Of a stretch of DNA of 25,168 bases, positions 16,619 through 25,168 are shown piece by piece (within the stretch, counting starts at the first letter, position 1; the number at the start of each line of letters is the position of its first letter). The stretch lies in NCBI GenBank assembly GCA_040289575.1, contig PSLL01000005.1:86309-111476 (forward strand), read 5' to 3'. Under the pieces are notes generated by a model. The model saw nothing but the letters and a program-made list of their open reading frames with translations. It was not told the DNA's origin and ran no database searches. The translations under genes and the position numbers were made by a program. This stretch comes from Candidatus Dadabacteria bacterium (GTDB lineage Bacteria; Desulfobacterota_D; UBA1144; Nemesobacterales; CSP1-2).

Positions 16619-17360
16619 ATAAATCCAAAGCGCCATCCAAACATTAGCTGGTAGGGCCGATCCGAATGAGCGTGCGGGATTCATGCTCATTCCGGAGAGG
16701 GGAGCCTCAAGCGTTATATATATATTGCCACCAGCGCTCCGGCAAATAGACCCGTAAACCGCGCAATGCTTAAGGTGTTAGATACCGTCAGTATAACGGA
16801 CATGAGGACAAAAGAGATAATCAATTCAGCCACGAATGCGACACTGGTGCCATCCATGCCTGGGATTGTGACGGCATAATTGACGGAAGGGTGTGCGATT
16901 GCATCTCTAATCACCGCCGCGGTAATCAAAACCCCGACCAGTCCGCCAATGAATTGCGCGATGACATAGAAGAATGCGTCCCAGGGCTTAACCTTGGATT
17001 TATATGTGCCCCCGATTGCTTTCCCCAAGGCGAGTAGATAATACCGATTGCTGTAAGACCCATTGCTATGCCTATCAGCATACGCCTCAAAAATGGATCA
17101 GCGATTGCGTGCCGGACGGGCGAATCCGGGTGTTCAAGGATTATGGTAAATAGACTTGCCGAAACCATGAATATACCAAGCCCTGCGGCCTCCATCATAT
17201 ATTCGGGCCAGTGGTGCCTTAGCCTATTGAGCATATCAGAGCTTGGGTGGGCACTTGATTTGGAAAACGGCTTCAAATCAAGCTTTTGCATGTCGGAGGA
17301 CTGCTGAAGGATTAAAGCCCCCTGTCCAGGCATTGGGTCGAGTCTTTTGTCTTCGTTCAT
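16608..17360 (-). pseudogene. Aquaporin/MIP family gene (disrupted, C-terminus lost)
   Basis: ATG 17360 overlaps the NDH-2 stop (ATGA); an alternative ATG is at 17234. HWPEYMMEAAGLGIFM...SGAHINP / deletion at 16995-16996 / KVKPWDAFFY...GALVAIYI / extra TA in (AT)n 16715-16725 / TLEAPLSGMSMNPARSFGSALPANVWMALWIYFTAP, which then fuses into the lactonase. Confidence 0.9.
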
Positions 17361-18716
17361 ATAATTGCCCTCTCTTTGACCGGAGCGGGGTTTGATATAT
17401 GGTCGGCCTCTTCTTCGGAATGAGAAACGGTCGGAGCGCGAAACGTAATGAATTGAACAAGGTCCTTTGAGAATATCAGGTCTAACGTCCAGTCCAATGC
17501 AACGCGCAGTTTTTTTCAAATCGTGGCAGTTTACTGAGGTATATTGTCCACCACAGCCACCAGGCAATAAACCCTGAGAAATTGATTCCCATGATATTGG
17601 CAACGCCAGTGCGTCTTCCAATTGCTGCCAACTGTCCAATGGTTGAAAAGACAAACGGTTTTTTCTTTCTGTTACTGATCGCCGATATAATATTTTGGGT
17701 AACGACTTTTCCCTCACGCAGTGCGTGTTGGGCTGTAGGCGGACAGTATTGTCCGGTCTTACGGTTGGGAATCAGGGCACAGTCTCCGAGTGCCCACACA
17801 CCAGGCCAATCCGGGACCTCCATATACTCGTTGACTATCAACCTGCCCCGTTCCTTTTTACAGGGAAGTGTATTCAAAAGCGGGTTCGAGGATGTTCCTG
17901 CTGTCCAGACAATCATATTCGTTCTTATCATCGTCCCATCGCTGAGTTCCACACCATGGTCTGAAACCCCTGTTACCTTGGTGTTGACTTGGATTTCCAC
18001 CTTTCGTTCAGACAGTTTTTTCTGTGCATAGGCGCCGAGCTTTTCGCCGAGTTCTGGTAGAATCACGGGTCCCGGGTGTACGAGTACCACTCGGACAACA
18101 TCTCGGACAACATCCTCGTTCAGATGTGGATAGAATTTGATGGCTTCACGAATAAAGTCATTTACAGAGGCAATGGTTTCAACCCCGGCGAACCCTCCGC
18201 CGGCAACGACAAACGTAAGCAGAGGCCCGCGCATGAGAGAGCAGCACTCTGTATCGGCTTCTTCTAGGTGTACAATCAGGCGATTGCGCAGGTGGATTGC
18301 ATCGCCCAGTGATTTCATTGTGAGTGCACGCTCTTCTAGCCCCGGCAGGTTATAGAAATTCGTGATGGAGCCAAGGGCGACTACTAGATAGTCGTACTCA
18401 AGATAATGATGGTGATGGTCGAACCAATGAGAGACAGTCACACACTTGGAGGGCAGGTCAATGTGCTCAACGTCACCTTCAAAGAACTTTACACGCCTCA
18501 GGAGCCTGCGTACCGGATTCACAATGTTTGTCAGGTCTATGTCGCTCGCCGCCACCTCATGGAGCATAGGGGTGAAGAGAAAAAATTATCCCTGTTTACC
18601 AGTGTTACCTCCGCGTTTTGATTGCGGGCGAGCCATTTTTCCAATTCTATGGCCGCATACAAACCTCCAAAACCGCTGCCCAAAATCAAAACCTGTTTTC
18701 GTCCGTCTTGGCTCAT
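17357..18716 (-). CDS. ndh: Type II NADH dehydrogenase-like FAD-dependent oxidoreductase (two homopolymer frameshifts)
   Basis: VLILGSGFGG, F(L)FTPMLHEVA, YDYLVVALGS, VVAGGGFAGVE, WTAG, WALGDCA, PPTAQHA, K(K)LRVALDWTLDLIFSKD. Frameshifts at A6 18580-18585 and T7 17510-17516. Confidence 0.88.
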
Positions 18717-18760
18717 AAGAGGCATTCTCCATCTAGTGCGTTTATCCAATATCTCGTTTA

Positions 18761-18788
18761 TTAGACAAGTGGAAATTATAAATAGATT
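18761..18788 (-). promoter_or_regulatory. Putative ECF sigma promoter (copy 3) upstream of ndh-aquaporin-lactonase operon
   Basis: Minus strand AATCT-N16-TGTCTAA, with the same spacing as the copies at 22535-22562 and 22929-22956. It lies 45 nt upstream of the ATG. Confidence 0.55.
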
Positions 18789-18858
18789 TATTGATTGGAA
18801 TCCTATTATCAGTGCTTGGCAATTATACAAACTTGATGTAACATAGACGGAGATCAGT

Positions 18859-19777
18859 ATGATACCGGCGGATGAAACCTTCCATGGAACCTTCCCATTT
18901 AGGCCGCATTTTTGCGAGGCGGCCGGGTTTCGTATGCACTATGTTGATGAAGGAGAAGGAGAACCGATCATCTGTCTTCACGGCGAGCCGACATGGGGGT
19001 ATATATATCGTAGATTCATTCCGCCTCTTTCAAAGACGCACAGGGTGATCGTGCCGGATCACATGGGTTTTGGAAAGAGTGAAACGCCTCAGGGTAAAGA
19101 ATATACACTTCGCACACATGTAGAGAACCTATCGGCGCTCATAGAAGAGCTCGACCTTTGGGACATTACATTCGTCTCCCAGGACTGGGGCGGTCCCATA
19201 AGTGGTGCCTATACAGTTCGCTGCCCCGATCGCGTCAAACGCTTTTGTTTGATGAATACACTCCTCGGTTATAGCCCGTTTGTAAAAAATGCGCCCAAGT
19301 TACCGTACTTACACACTTCACCCTGGTTCACTTGGATTGCCGAGGGACTAAAGGACGGTTCGTATTATGAGGTGATGGGTAATCTGGGAAGTACCGTTCT
19401 CAGTGTCATGAAGATCTTCGGGTTTGAAAATTCCGCAGTTGTTGATGAAACCTGGCTCCACGCATATTCCGCGCCCTTTGAGAATAAAGAGGAGTGTAAA
19501 GGTGCCATTGAGTTCCCCCCTCGATGTTGCCCTACAAAGGGTGGCCGATTATGTCAAGGAAGGAACGGGCGGCATTGAAGAGTTGCGAAATAAACACGTC
19601 ATGCTTGCCGAGGGGATGCGTGATCGGGCTATTCCTCCAGAAAGGGCTATCACGGACTTTAGAACCCTATTTCCCAAGGGACCGGTAGTTGAATTAGAAA
19701 ACGTTGGCCACTTCTGTCAGGAGGATGCGCCGGAGACACTGGTTGCTTTGGTACGGCAGTTTATTCAGATGACCTAG
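18859..19777 (+). CDS. Haloalkane dehalogenase-family alpha/beta hydrolase (frameshift at C6 19515-19520)
   Basis: MHYVDEG, LHGEPTWG, PDHMGFGKS, nucleophile motif QDWGG, GHFCQED. Removing one C joins EFP to LDVAL. A possible promoter TTGGCA-N17-TAACAT lies at 18816-18844. Confidence 0.87.
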
Positions 19778-20328: not shown

Positions 20329-22106
20329 CTAACCCCTTCCCTTGGGCCGCTTTTCAAAAATAACCCTATTATACGCCGTGATTAAATCCCTTCTTGAAAG
20401 CAATCCTACAATCTTTCTCGAACCGCTCGATTCGACTACAGGAAGAATCTCTACGGTTTTTTTAGCCCATTTTTTAAGGACGGTATCAAGCGTCTCATCC
20501 GGGGTTACTGTTATTACATTTAGCGTAGCGACCTCCTTAACAACAATCAAATCCTCCAGAGACTCTTCAAATATCCACTCTCTCAGGTCTTGAATTGAGA
20601 TTATTCCCGTGAGAAGCCCTTTTTCATCTACGATCGGAAATGTTGTGTAGTGGCTTTTCGGTATATACTCTATTAGCTTTCTGAGGGTCGCATTCTCTGG
20701 TATGGCTTCGATATCTCGAGTCATGACGTCCTCGACTCGAATTAGGCCTAAATCACCTGTTTCCAATTTTTCCTCTATATCTATACCCATCCTCTTAAAT
20801 TCTATGCTCTCAAGTGAACCTCCGACTAAGAGTCGTGCTACCACACTTCCGAGAACTGAGCTAATCATTATCGGGACCACAACCTGATATGTCTGTGTCA
20901 TTTCAAATATTAGAAATATCGATGTAAGCGGGGCTTGTGTGACCGCTGCAAGAAAGGCTCCCATTCCGACAGTTGCATAAGCACTACTGAGACCAACCGT
21001 TCCCGGGAAGATAATCTCGACAACCTTCCCAAATGCGCTTCCTACCATTACTCCTATAAAAATGGAGGGTGCAAATATCCCACCCGGCCATTCTGAACCG
21101 AGTGTGATGGAGGTCGCAATAGGTTTCAGAAGGATTAATCCGAGTATTACCCAAAGCGGTAGTTCACCAAGCAGTGCCTTTTCAACATGTTCGTAACCGT
21201 TTCCAAGTACATAAGGAAGAAATATTCCTATTAGGCCTATTATGCACCCCCCTAAAATGGGCTTTACTCTTGGGGGGGGAGCTCTAATCTAACAAAGGTG
21301 TCTTTTGTCCAATAAAAGAGCTTAATAAAGCCCGATGCGAGGAGTCCTGTAACGAGTCCCAAGGTCGCGTAAAAGAAAAGCTCCTTGTAGCTTACAAGCC
21401 TATAGAGAGGCACCCTAAATATAGGCGTATCTCCTCTCAGAGCACGTGATGTGATTGTGCCTATTGCCGATGAAATCACAATTGGAACAAAGCTTTCAAT
21501 CTTAAAATCCCTAAGAAGGGCAATCTCTTCGGCAAAAAGAACACCGGTAATCGGAGCGTTAAATGTTGCCGCTATTCCTGCCGCAACCCCACAGGCAACA
21601 AACACACGGATTTTGTTTCTAGAGATCCTTAGAATCTGTCCGACAAAGCTACCCACCGCACCGCCTATCTGTGCAATTGGCCCTTCCTGTCCTGCCGAGC
21701 CGCCAAATCCGAGTGTTACACATGACGCAACTGTTTTTGCTATCGTTTCCTTTGGCTTTAGTACTCCGCCCTTTAGGTTTATTCTCTCAAGAAACTTTGG
21801 GAAACTGTAGCCTAAGGCCTCAGAGGGGGGAAAAATAAAGGAAAGGAGAATTAGAATAAGTCCTCCGCCTATGGTTGATACTATTACAAACGGTGAACCC
21901 CAAAGGGGCATAACCGCTTTGGAATAAATAAATTGATAGCTTTCTATGAAAGCGAAATTCGTAAGCTCACCGAGAAACCCTATTAGAATCGCTACGAATA
22001 TAAAAAACGTATACTCATTTGAAAATAGCAAATAGATGCGATGCACCAACCGCCTAAAATTACTCTTAATTGGTTCAGAGCTAGATTCTTTTTGCGATTC
22101 TTCCAT
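20329..22106 (-). CDS. CLC-family chloride channel/transporter with C-terminal CBS pair (frameshift at G8 21272-21279)
   Basis: GGSAGQEGP, CGVAAGIAATFNAP, VLGNGY, GGIFAPS, MGAFLAAVTQAPLT, plus two CBS domains. The intervening region 21049-21270 is open in the frame of the downstream ORF. Confidence 0.92.
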
Positions 22107-22287: not shown

Positions 22288-22503
22288 TTATACCGTAATT
22301 AGAACATGTGCGTGAGGCGGCAACTTATCGCAGGGGCCGTTTGATATTACAGGCTTAACGTTTCCTTTATTGTAATCCGGCAGCAGGCATATTACATTAC
22401 CCTCTATTGTCTGCATTCCCTCCTCATGCGCCGAGAATGCGGATGAGACCGCAAAAGCAAGAACCAGCATTAAAGATAGAGTAAGTAGGCTAACTCTCTT
22501 CAT
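22288..22503 (-). CDS. Small secreted protein with Cys/His motif, possibly truncated
   Basis: SD GGAGGT. Signal peptide MKRVSLLTLSLMLVLAFAVSSAFSA, then EGNVICLLPD...GPCDKLPPHAHVL. Confidence 0.65.
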   Translation of the reverse strand: MKRVSLLTLSLMLVLAFAVSSAFSAHEEGMQTIEGNVICLLPDYNKGNVKPVISNGPCDKLPPHAHVLITV

Positions 22504-22534
22504 TTCTTACCTCCCTAATCTTGATTTTGTCTAG

Positions 22535-22562
22535 TTAGACGTTAGGGAGGAGGAAAGGGATT
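22535..22562 (-). promoter_or_regulatory. Putative ECF sigma promoter (copy 2)
   Basis: Minus strand AATCC-ctttcctcctccctaa-CGTCTAA, 32 nt upstream of ATG 22503. Confidence 0.7.
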
Positions 22563-22596
22563 TAAAAATTTGACGGTGTTGAGAATGACGGGCGGA

Positions 22597-22892
22597 TTAA
22601 CCCTTAGTTGAGAATCCTTTAATCTTCTTTTGAATAAATTCTCTCACCCGATTTTTTGCCTCTGGCGGAATATCCTCATATCGTAAAGATCGTGTGGATT
22701 GTATGGTTTTTTGTATGTATTTAAAAAGGCTACACAGTCCGGACAGAGACTTAAATGCTCCTCAAACGCCTGGGTCGCTCTGGGATCCATCTTCCCCTTT
22801 ATGTAGTCCATAATCAGAGACACAACCCGCTTACAGGTTATCTTGGCTCCATTTGATAATTTCTTTCACCGGACTGGATTTTGCTTAACCAT
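22597..22892 (-). pseudogene. Soluble zf-HC2 (ZAS) anti-sigma factor, frameshifted; missed by the ORF track
   Basis: ...KLSNGAKITCKRVVSLIMDYIKGKMDPRATQAFEEHLSLCPDCVAFLNTYKK / TIQSTRSLRYEDIPPEAKNRVREFIQKKIKGFSTKG*, with the Hx3Cx2C motif. Frameshift at T6 22707-22712 and another near the start. Confidence 0.85.
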
Positions 22893-22928
22893 TAAGGATT
22901 GGACTGAATGTAAATATTCTAATTGACT

Positions 22929-22957
22929 TTAGACGTTAGAAAAGAGTGTTTGGATTC
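22929..22957 (-). promoter_or_regulatory. Putative ECF sigma promoter (copy 1)
   Basis: Minus strand GAATCC-aaacactcttttctaa-CGTCTAA, 37 nt upstream of the anti-sigma ATG. Confidence 0.7.
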
Positions 22958-23020
22958 GGGTTAGAGGTTTAATTTGAGGACGCGGTTTTCTATCCTGCAT
23001 CATGAATCATGTATCTTGTA

Positions 23021-23713
23021 TCATTTTACATAATTGTGTCCAAGGGATTCCGACAGTTTACCGCGCAGAAAGAGTCGCGCTCTATGGAGTCGCGCCTTAA
23101 CTGCCTGGATGGTTAATTCCAGAGCCTCTCCAACCTCGCGGTTTGACATATCTTCGAGATCGCTCATCACTACCACAGTCCTGTCTACAGGCGAAAGCTG
23201 ATCCAGAGCCTGGTGTATAATCTGACTGATTTCATTGCCGGCGACGAGTTTATCAATGTCTTGAGACCAATCAATCACGGGCATAAGATGATGGCCGTCC
23301 TCCTTAAATTTGAGCATATAGTCATCCAATGAGACCTCTTTTTCTCTTTTACACCGACGGAGTTTTGTGAGGGCTGCATTCACAGTAAGACAGTAGAGCC
23401 ATGTTGAGAACTTCGATTTGCCTTGAAAGGTCTTTGCCTTCCTATAAGCCAGCAGGAAAACCTCTTGGACAACATCTTCTGCGTCGGCCTCGTTTCCTGT
23501 AAGCTTTAGCACCTGACGATACACCCTGCTGACATAGCGATCGAAGATTAATTCGAAGGCTCTATGGTCCCCCCCCTTGACACGCTCTATGAGCGATCGC
23601 TCTTCGTCGGATGGAATCACTAGCGTAATGTCTTTTGGGTATGCGCTGACCATAGAGGAATCATAATGGATTTCATTTTTTATCTTTTCAACCCCCGTGT
23701 TAACCTCTTCCAT
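23021..23713 (-). CDS. ECF-family RNA polymerase sigma factor
   Basis: Start at ATG 23713 after AGGAGGG. Region 2: DAEDVVQEVFL...FQGKSKFSTWLY. Region 4: LEDMSNREVGEALELTIQAVKARLHRAR. Confidence 0.95.
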   Translation of the reverse strand: MEEVNTGVEKIKNEIHYDSSMVSAYPKDITLVIPSDEERSLIERVKGGDHRAFELIFDRYVSRVYRQVLKLTGNEADAEDVVQEVFLLAYRKAKTFQGKSKFSTWLYCLTVNAALTKLRRCKREKEVSLDDYMLKFKEDGHHLMPVIDWSQDIDKLVAGNEISQIIHQALDQLSPVDRTVVVMSDLEDMSNREVGEALELTIQAVKARLHRARLFLRGKLSESLGHNYVK

Positions 23714-23761
23714 CTTTTCCCTCCTTCTGGGCATTAAAAATCCCACCCATGCGATTTTTTT

Positions 23762-24049
23762 CTATTCTCTGTCGTTACTTATCAATTTGTTTGCTTCTAG
23801 GAGCGTTTCAATGAATAGAGAGTAATTGACTATTAATACCCGATTATCCTTTATCCTCTTTAGTACTTTTAGGCTATTATTATCAATGAAAGCCACACCG
23901 GAGAGATCCAATACAACGGTTTTGCCTTTTTCATCCCTGTAATGTAGACATAACTCTTCTAAATCCGATGCCGATGTCCCAACCATTTTGTCATCCAATT
24001 TCAGGGCTATCGTTTTTTCATCCTCAGAGGTTTCTGTAATTCTAAGCAT
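23762..24049 (-). CDS. STAS-domain-like small protein (putative anti-sigma antagonist)
   Basis: MLRIT...LKLD..MVG....LEELC...VVLDLSGVAFID...L. Confidence 0.75.
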   Translation of the reverse strand: MLRITETSEDEKTIALKLDDKMVGTSASDLEELCLHYRDEKGKTVVLDLSGVAFIDNNSLKVLKRIKDNRVLIVNYSLFIETLLEANKLISNDRE

Positions 24050-24078
24050 TCCTGTAATTTCTCCTACGCTGTTTTATT

Positions 24079-24095
24079 CGCAAAAGGTGTGCCAA
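24079..24095 (-). promoter_or_regulatory. sigma54 (-24/-12) promoter driving STAS-ECF operon
   Basis: Minus strand TTGGCAC-ACCTT-TTGCG matches TGGCAC-N5-TTGC exactly and lies 30 nt upstream of ATG 24049. Confidence 0.85.
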
Positions 24096-24202
24096 TATTG
24101 TAGGGGCAATTCATGAATTGTCCCTACTCTAGTCTAATTAGCTCAACTTATACGATTAATTGATTTCCTTTCCGTTATTTGTCTTTTATTTACTAATTCA
24201 AT

Positions 24203-24237
24203 CCACGAAATATCGTGGCCGCCACGAAATATCATAG
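24203..24237. promoter_or_regulatory. Tandem palindromic enhancer-like sites (candidate bEBP UAS)
   Basis: CCACGAAATATCGTGG (24203-24218, arms CCACGA/TCGTGG) and CCACGAAATATCATAG (24222-24237), about 110-140 bp upstream of the sigma54 site. Confidence 0.7.
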
Positions 24238-24397
24238 CAGATGGGACTTATGTTTAATCCGGATTCAACTTATGAACCTCAAATCCCTTTATACATGCCA
24301 ATAAGGCTGTGTATTGTACTGAGGTCTTGAACCTTGATTCACATCGGTTTGAAAGCTATATTGTATGTAATAGCTAAGCTTCTATGACAGACAAGTC

Positions 24398-25168
24398 ATG
24401 AAAGACATTGATGGGAAGGAAGAATCGGATCGAATCAGAGAAATTGAACAAAATGTTCAAGAATCCAACGAGAGACTGTCCGCAGCGGATTCGGAATTGC
24501 TTCGGCACCTTGCGGCGGGGACGGCATCATCTCTGGCGCCGATTTTTTTTTCAATTCGCTTGTCTGCTATGTTGCCTCCGCGCTCCGCGTGCGTTACGCC
24601 TTCGTTACCGAGTGTACGGATGCAACAGTGACAAGGGTTCGTACGCTCGCCTTTTGGATGGGCAAAGGCTTTGGCGACAACTTCGAGTACGCTCTGGCTG
24701 ACACCCCCTGCGAAAATGTAATCGGCGGTGATATGCTATTATCCAAAGGACTTACAGATACTCTTTCCCAAGGATAAAGGACTGGTCGAGTGGAGGGCAG
24801 AGAGTTTTCTGGGAATACCGATCCGCGATTCGAGGGGTCATATTTTGGGTCACCTAGCTGCACTCGATGATAAACCCCGCGGAGTGTCTATTTTGCGGAT
24901 TTTTGCTGCCCGGGCAGGTATGGAACTGGAGCGCAAGCGGGCGGAGGAGAAATTGCTGGGAGCCTACAACGATCTGCGTCGCGTAACCGCGGAACTCAGT
25001 GTCCTGCTCGACGTTAACCGGGCCATCAGCCGACATCTCGAACGCGATGGGCTGTTCGGTGCTTTGGCCAGTTGCCTACGGGGTCTTTTGCGGATTGACC
25101 GGTTCGGAATAGAGCTTCCTCTCGGTGATGACAAACTGCAGGGGCATCTGCTGATACCGCGCGGCGGG
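24398..25168 (+). CDS. Tandem-GAF sensor protein, probably an FhlA-like sigma54 activator (partial; two frameshifts)
   Basis: Reconstruction: LRHLAAGTAS / GADFFFNSLVCYVASALRVRYAFVTEC...VRTLAFW...FEYALADTPCENVIGG / CYYPKDLQILFPKD...ESFLGIPIRDSRGHILGHLAALDDKP..ILRIFAARAGMELERKRAEE...LLDVNRAISRHL. Frameshifts at ~24530 and ~24733. The AAA+ domain is outside the window. Confidence 0.75.

Follow-up and report, generated by a model that had tools for sequence, protein, structure and literature searches.

A predicted sigma54-to-ECF sigma factor relay of little-studied bacterial phyla and its decayed copy in a Candidatus Dadabacteria genome

The 25,168-nucleotide stretch of Candidatus Dadabacteria DNA analyzed here (the whole stretch is called the window; G000:C12:86309-111476 of the 3.06 Mb genome under study, G000) ends in a gene cluster that points to a two-tier transcription relay, in which sigma54 would switch on an extracytoplasmic function (ECF) sigma factor. 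From comparisons that include G001 and G002, other genomes of the same genus, we consider it likely that this relay, with its wiring deduced from conserved genes and sites, is still whole in relatives but no longer works in this strain. In the first tier an FhlA-like bacterial enhancer-binding protein (bEBP) of a single clade, with interchangeable sensors (GAF, PAS or REC), would bind a pair of palindromes, spaced by 19 bp and lying some 110-130 bp ahead of the -24 element, and would thereby open the sigma54 promoter of a STAS-ECF transcript. In the second tier the ECF would recognize G[GA]ATCC-N16-C[GA]TCTAA and transcribe its own soluble zinc anti-sigma, giving a delayed negative feedback and hence a pulse, and would also transcribe a secreted Cys/His protein and drive scattered protective genes (ergothioneine-like, glucose dehydrogenase, DM13, SnoaL, VOC, glycoside hydrolase).

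An earlier sequence-only reading of the window had listed a divergent GAF regulator, tandem repeats, a sigma54 site, and STAS, ECF, zf-HC2 and secreted-protein genes, and all of these parts are present. It had suspected the GAF gene of being the sigma54 activator, and on the extended contig this gene does encode, beyond the window end, an AAA+ domain (PF00158) and a Fis-type helix-turn-helix (HTH; PF02954), which identifies it as a bEBP. The window holds the 5' part of this FhlA-like bEBP pseudogene (24398-25168, plus strand; GAF-GAF-AAA+-Fis HTH), which continues on the contig to window-equivalent position 26503. The GAFTGA motif expected of such an activator is found in 67 of the 70 readable bEBPs, but the local copy reads RAFTGA. 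Cassette bEBPs of family f6 (L046:4059-5597, L061:3424-4971) read GAFTTA. The G002 orthologue (L031) is intact at 717 aa, and AAA+ with GAFTGA plus a Fis HTH were found in L031 and nine other orthologues. Tandem GAF domains, AAA+ with GAFTGA (in the relatives) and the Fis HTH are features shared with FhlA, and the best NCBIfam match is NF011958 (FhlA); however, at 424.9 bits against a cut-off of 830 the activator does not class as an FhlA equivalog, and it further differs in its variable sensors and in targeting STAS-ECF rather than formate hydrogenlyase. In a FastTree tree of AAA domains the cassette bEBPs formed a single clade (support 0.989), with the other bEBPs of G000 outside it and no second clade member in that genome. 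Their genes are divergent or co-directional, one stands beside a histidine kinase, and from one locus to another the input part is GAF, PAS or REC, so that the signal is not fixed and the specific GAF-sensed signal once proposed is not borne out.

The sigma54 promoter predicted ahead of the STAS gene (24080-24095, minus strand, with TGGCAC-N5-TTGC at 24080-24094; predicted start about 24068) is the only -24/-12 site in the window, with 0.05 expected by chance, and rpoN is intact in G000. The promoter-proximal enhancer palindrome, CCACGA-N4-TCGTGG, lies at 24203-24218 and a second, imperfect one at 24222-24237, 19 bp from the first; the 12-mer repeat CCACGAAATATC occurs in exact form only twice in the genome, at these two places (24203 and 24222). 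Counts of -24/-12 sites were made with an untrained pattern, since the sigma54 matrix had been trained on own-phylum sites, and locus L052 (Ns) was dropped. The consensus was present on the coding strand in 46/63 STAS-ECF loci and on the opposite strand in 0/63, with 28/28 in the own phylum and 6/6 in Nitrospirota; among STAS loci without an ECF it was found in 7/31. An enhancer motif occupied -145 to -95 in 27/29 own-phylum promoters against 1/29 in a control window, and in 11/26 against 3/26 promoters of other phyla. In 25 of the 29 loci (four poor matches being left out) its offsets were -118 to -120 (4 loci), -128 to -132 (19) and -140/-141 (2), and their helical phasing (R 0.83) mostly reflects this clustering. 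Across phyla the palindrome sequence follows the HTH recognition helix: PNTLR goes with CACGA-N4-TCGT, PTTLE with CCCAA-N4-TTGGG and PDTLR with CGGGA-N4-TCCCG, although GC-rich genomes give some misses. Both the -24/-12 site and the palindromes are conserved upstream of homologous STAS-ECF pairs, as the sequence-only reading had anticipated, and together with the bEBP domains they make sigma54-driven ECF expression a well-supported prediction. A binding site for integration host factor (IHF) between enhancer and promoter was considered as well; its consensus occurred in 7/29 against 3.9 expected, which is not convincing.

The cassette was surveyed in 95 STAS loci read with their flanks in four phyla (own 34, Nitrospirota 20, Methylomirabilota 28, Acidobacteriota 13), leaving out L005 and L063 (STAS after ECF, no -24/-12 site seen), weak own-phylum matches, and G346:C153, one of the 29 Methylomirabilota matches. 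The STAS family occurs in 28/120 own-phylum genomes and, at E 1e-12, in 15/151 Nitrospira-phylum, 24/121 Methylomirabilota and 10/151 Terriglobia-phylum genomes; it comprises 569 clusters at E 1e-10 or better, and a metagenome scan yielded one weak locus. A bEBP gene lay within about 5 kb upstream in 74/95 loci (own 29/34, Nitrospirota 13/20, Methylomirabilota 24/28, Acidobacteriota 8/13), and an ECF gene directly followed STAS in 64/95 (29, 6, 25 and 4 in the same order). STAS-ECF-zfHC2 synteny was recovered, with a soluble zinc anti-sigma (ZAS) gene detected alongside STAS and ECF in 22/95 loci (15, 6, 1 and 0) by a model trained on the own phylum. The ECFs behind STAS fall in at least three clades in a quick tree with long branches, in which the L058 row was mislabelled ZAS. 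At L354:6237-7364 (G055:C45) the ECF 3' end abuts the AAA+ part of the activator, with STAS, promoter and both 5' ends missing through deletion or misassembly.

Within the window, a stand-alone STAS gene of 95 aa (PF01740; 23762-24049, minus strand) is followed by the ECF gene (PF04542 and PF08281; 23021-23746, minus strand, the start being uncertain between 23746 and 23713), whose best NCBIfam match was PRK11922 at 156.6 against a cut-off of 204. Both intergenic gaps behind the ECF gene hold [GA]AATCC-N16-CGTCTAA, which the sequence-only reading had missed. The predicted ECF target promoters are GAATCC-N16-CGTCTAA (22929-22957, minus strand) for the anti-sigma gene and AAATCC-N16-CGTCTAA (22535-22563, minus strand) for the secreted gene, and with a promoter of its own before each of these two, the four genes no longer read as the single sigma54 operon first described. 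Family-wide the motif is G[GA]ATCC-N16-C[GA]TCTAA. Ahead of the ZAS gene the strict pattern was found in 13/15 loci and the matrix matched in 15/15, 12 of which belonged to its training set. A matrix trained on 12 relatives, without G000, ranked the two window sites first and third in the whole genome. Matches outnumbered those of the reversed pattern by 113 to 21 in 61 genomes; where a ZAS-type cassette is present (12 genomes) the ratio was 73 to 3. Among the loci inspected there was no convincing copy before STAS, so that the ECF appears not to autoregulate.

The anti-sigma pseudogene (22597-22892, minus strand; PF13490) has the features of a ZAS, namely a zf-HC2 His/Cys motif, a soluble product and the +1 position, and its orthologues in G001 and G002 are called at 98-104 aa. 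Next to it is an ORF of 71 aa for a signal-peptide (secreted) protein (22288-22503, minus strand), without a Pfam family and with invariant Cys/Cys/His-x-His. The intact family (L031:6897-7241 and homologues) is 115 aa long, lacks a Pfam match, has an invariant C-x18-C-x5-H-x-H pattern that possibly binds metal, and gave one weak lead, to DUF5818 (11% of one cluster). Genes behind the motif were read in 40 chosen stretches, 30 loci, and the ten matches of G000, out of the 113. Six genomes had a PF10017 methyltransferase there and two a DinB/FGE-sulfatase gene, and we take these to be the ergothioneine-like egtD and egtB. Also present were glucose dehydrogenase (3), DM13 (4), SnoaL (3), VOC (3) and a GH63/MGH1-like hydrolase (2). 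In its make-up this set resembles a regulon for general or oxidative stress, and the ECF probably drives it together with its own inhibitor.

Several observations weigh against a relay of this form. The -24/-12 consensus was present in just 11/25 Methylomirabilota and 1/4 Acidobacteriota STAS-ECF loci, the anti-sigma was found in just the 22 loci given above, 5/34 own-phylum STAS loci have no ECF behind STAS, and because the related genomes compared share kinship their loci are not independent. Genome-wide enrichment of the ECF matrix was modest, with 9 matches at a score of 17 or more against 0-8 in 20 permutations and 14 at a score of 15 against 3-21. Genomes in which no STAS gene was detected (G005, G007, G008, G011, G022) carry the motif too, so that paralogous ECFs may read it, and it was not seen after the six Nitrospirota ECF-ZAS loci, whose ECFs belong to a different clade. 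Some motif matches lie inside genes; the matrix match before the anti-sigma gene on C126 and some egtD-like matches are inside coding DNA and may be due to chance. Finally, of 46 longer STAS homologues 8 are STAS-ECF fusions, which count in favor of the relay, but 27 are fused to TolC and 11 are others, so that fusion may reflect gene adjacency. A structure model of a natural STAS-ECF fusion, built from 8 sequences, had a predicted TM-score (pTM) of 0.34.

The window's first description had also added a partner-switch-like layer, resting on the STAS protein and the soluble anti-sigma. The STAS fold is RsbV-like (G002 orthologue: Z 12.8, root-mean-square deviation 2.0 over 90 residues; PDB 6m36_B and 1tid_B). 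Against TIGR00377 the STAS protein scored 23.5 bits with a cut-off of 53.45. RsbV and SpoIIAA carry the phosphorylation motif D-S-x-G. The position after the conserved Asp, which we take to be their phospho-serine, is Ser in 6/68 and 1/45 rows and Asn57 in the local copy, which also has Asp20 and Ser59 in place of family glycines. No SpoIIE phosphatase (PF07228) was found in G000, G001 or G002 (92-95% complete), whereas 2/2 genomes of another family have PF07228; for an RsbW-type kinase, the PF13581 matches in the same three genomes were weak and lay in ORFs of at least 225 aa, not RsbW-sized. The shared fold notwithstanding, the local STAS family thus differs from SpoIIAA and RsbV in being shorter and in having neither a conserved phospho-Ser nor a linked kinase or phosphatase, and the view of STAS as a phosphorylation-controlled anti-anti-sigma is not supported. 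It could still be argued that STAS captures the ZAS and so frees the ECF, given that RsbV and SpoIIAA are its closest folds, that STAS, ECF and ZAS are co-located in 22/95 loci, and that in PMC7826278 both ECF19s7 and ECF19s18 have a STAS gene at -1 together with a soluble anti-sigma of the zinc-finger kind. We regard such a switch as unlikely in view of the rarity of Ser at the phospho position, the missing SpoIIE and RsbW-sized matches, and the 42/64 STAS-ECF loci in which ZAS went undetected; a phosphorylation-free capture of ZAS by STAS may occur.

Most likely, STAS is a co-made partner of the ECF, with putative binding between the two. A possible but less favored role is that of a feedback regulator of the bEBP or of the sigma54 step, the ECF being one of several cargoes. 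STAS comes first in the sigma54 transcript, neighbors a bEBP (74/95) more often than an ECF (64/95), and precedes ECFs of at least three clades and also RND (resistance-nodulation-division) efflux operons. A parallel is HycA, which acts on FhlA. Another is HrpV, which inhibits HrpS. On the other hand, the 46 longer homologues include no STAS-bEBP fusion against 8 with ECF, and the STAS genes linked to efflux seem to form a subfamily of their own, mostly without a -24/-12 site (present in 7 of the 31 ECF-less loci). Binding to the ECF is therefore our first guess for STAS and feedback on the bEBP our second. The efflux-associated subfamily precedes RND operons in Nitrospirota and Acidobacteriota (L149, G121:C9:66608), and members of it (P0179-P0219) are fused in frame to the TolC N-terminus, ahead of an apparent signal peptide.

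A working system at this locus, as first envisaged, is not what the local copy represents: it is a pseudogene cluster, and set against G001 and G002 its genes for the activator, the anti-sigma and the secreted protein are broken. The activator has lost 1 nt after 24532, 2 nt after 24731 and 15 nt after 24873, has T9 for T6 at 24543-24551, and carries RAFTGA for GAFTGA at window-equivalent 25797, a change found only in this copy (1/70 readable bEBPs). With two frameshifting sites its first frame ends after 77 aa, and the AAA+-HTH part is an open frame. Codon 9 of the anti-sigma gene is a stop and its frame shifts near 22710, and the secreted gene is shortened to 71 of 115 aa (44 residues lost). 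A 110-base N gap follows the window end at 25168; the run contigs described next span it with 106 letters, and the G001 contig stops at the same spot.

We compared the assembly with contigs from four sequencing runs of two studies, one run possibly being the source of the assembly. Run contigs X1 and X2, one from each study, span the activator, anti-sigma and secreted-gene lesions with the same letters as the assembly. The ECF frame is open as assembled, but in 3/4 runs (contigs X1-X3) one base is missing from the C-run at 23569-23576, which would stop the frame after 55 aa. A ClC/CBS chloride-channel gene (20329-22106, minus strand) is likewise split at a G-run (21272-21279) that is two bases shorter in run contigs of both studies, where its frame has 591 aa instead of the 280 aa assembled; this break is an assembly artefact, and from the two sites the assembly seems to overcall homopolymers. 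The open ECF frame is thus probably an artefact or a strain difference, and the local ECF is probably broken too. Such artefacts could be taken to mean that the other lesions are assembly errors as well, or that an N-terminally shortened activator is made, and that the locus still works; the promoter and enhancer are near-perfect, rpoN is intact, the AAA+-HTH part is open, and some changes of the second glycine of GAFTGA are tolerated in NorR, the mutation data taken from PMC2941729 concerning that glycine only. We hold this to be very improbable, because the lesions are the same in contigs from both studies and X1-X3 add the ECF frameshift, RAFTGA is confined to 1/70 bEBPs with no second copy of the clade in G000, and the paralogous STAS and ECF-ZAS pieces elsewhere in the genome are broken as well. 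These are an ECF gene followed by a frameshifted STAS gene (L063:5225-6329, G000:C88) and a broken ECF gene followed by an intact zf-HC2 gene (L064:10298-11240, G000:C126). Among ortholog matches tested, 4/21 were split, with polA and other long genes whole. The set of G002 (L031) is intact, and the local copy is unsuited to experiments.

Between the enhancer and the -24 element lies a 28-bp palindrome (24100-24127) resembling repetitive extragenic palindromic (REP) elements, not listed in the sequence-only reading. In G000 it has 10 copies if up to 4 mismatches are allowed, and 19 sites fit its general form. The family consists of GTAGGGGC...GCCCCTAC palindromes. By alignment the copy at 24100-24127 is present in G001 and absent from G002, and its insertion lengthens the enhancer-to--24 spacing by about 10 bp, roughly one helical turn. 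The insertion probably predates the decay, since G001 shares the palindrome yet keeps intact STAS, ECF, ZAS and secreted genes. GTAG REP elements are multicopy extragenic palindromes of 20-40 bp with a GTAG end, which is given as unpaired in PMC3733652. The local palindrome measures 28 bp, has 10-19 copies and pairs its GTAG with CTAC. On the activator side, a sigma70-like candidate promoter (TTGATT-17-TATATT, 24334-24362, plus strand) is weak alone, six such patterns being found against 5.5 in shuffles; it aligns in G001 and G002, and a similar site is seen in most divergent loci.

The sequence-only reading knew of no characterized system with this wiring. A characterized sigma54-to-ECF cascade does exist in Pseudomonas syringae, though without STAS or anti-sigma: there the bEBP pair HrpR/HrpS activates the sigma54 promoter of the ECF gene hrpL (ECF32), with negative feedback (PMC5263251, PMC8999054). 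As in that case, the local ECF gene stands under a -24/-12 promoter with an upstream bEBP enhancer, here as judged from conservation. HrpL itself uses GGAAC/CCAC promoters, stands in a type III secretion context and has no anti-sigma or STAS partner; the local cassette has the G[GA]ATCC/CGTCTAA motif and a zf-HC2 gene, and its ECF is not ECF32. The bEBP here is a single multi-sensor protein of the FhlA kind, STAS is predicted to be transcribed with the ECF, and the ECF would drive a zinc anti-sigma and a stress-type regulon. Soluble ZAS anti-sigmas are described for ECF11, 12, 14, 270, 271 and 293 (PMC7826278, PMC8999054). The local cassette resembles these groups in its soluble zinc-finger anti-sigma at +1, and ECF19s7 and ECF19s18 in having STAS at -1, but differs in that no promoter of the ECF's own type is seen upstream of the ECF gene and the anti-sigma gene has an ECF promoter to itself. 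In ECF19 the anti-sigma carries a fused mycothiol isomerase domain, and for ECF19s7 and ECF19s18 no sigma54 link is described in the part of PMC7826278 covered; the part of its supplement searched holds no ECF group with the G[GA]ATCC and CGTCTAA pairing. A literature search covering few subscription journals found no description of a bEBP-STAS-ECF module.

Sigma54-to-ECF control as such is thus already known from HrpL, and what the present analysis adds is the predicted promoter read by the ECF, an anti-sigma gene with a transcript of its own, a candidate regulon and an HTH code. We tentatively suggest that the cassette is a plug-in stress relay of uncultured soil phyla with a readable HTH-to-palindrome code, in which a phosphorylation-free STAS would be a new direct ECF partner (chaperone, co-activator or anti-sigma) and the zinc anti-sigma would make the pulse. 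If so, it would serve those lineages as a general or oxidative stress system. The predicted module extends the range of sigma54-to-ECF cascades, with a single case in a plant pathogen so far, to at least four phyla. It offers parts open to testing, namely the enhancer, the HTH code, both types of promoter, the candidate regulon and a STAS family of unexplained role, and could yield orthogonal parts for synthetic biology.

Genes for a GH63/MGH1-like hydrolase, glycogen debranching enzyme and 6-phosphogluconate dehydrogenase recur near ZAS-type cassettes (L041, L043-L045, L048, L049, L052, L059, L065), hinting at a carbon-storage or osmolyte link. Elsewhere in the window, aquaporin-like, NADH-dehydrogenase-like and alpha/beta-hydrolase genes (16714-19777) are each split over several frames.

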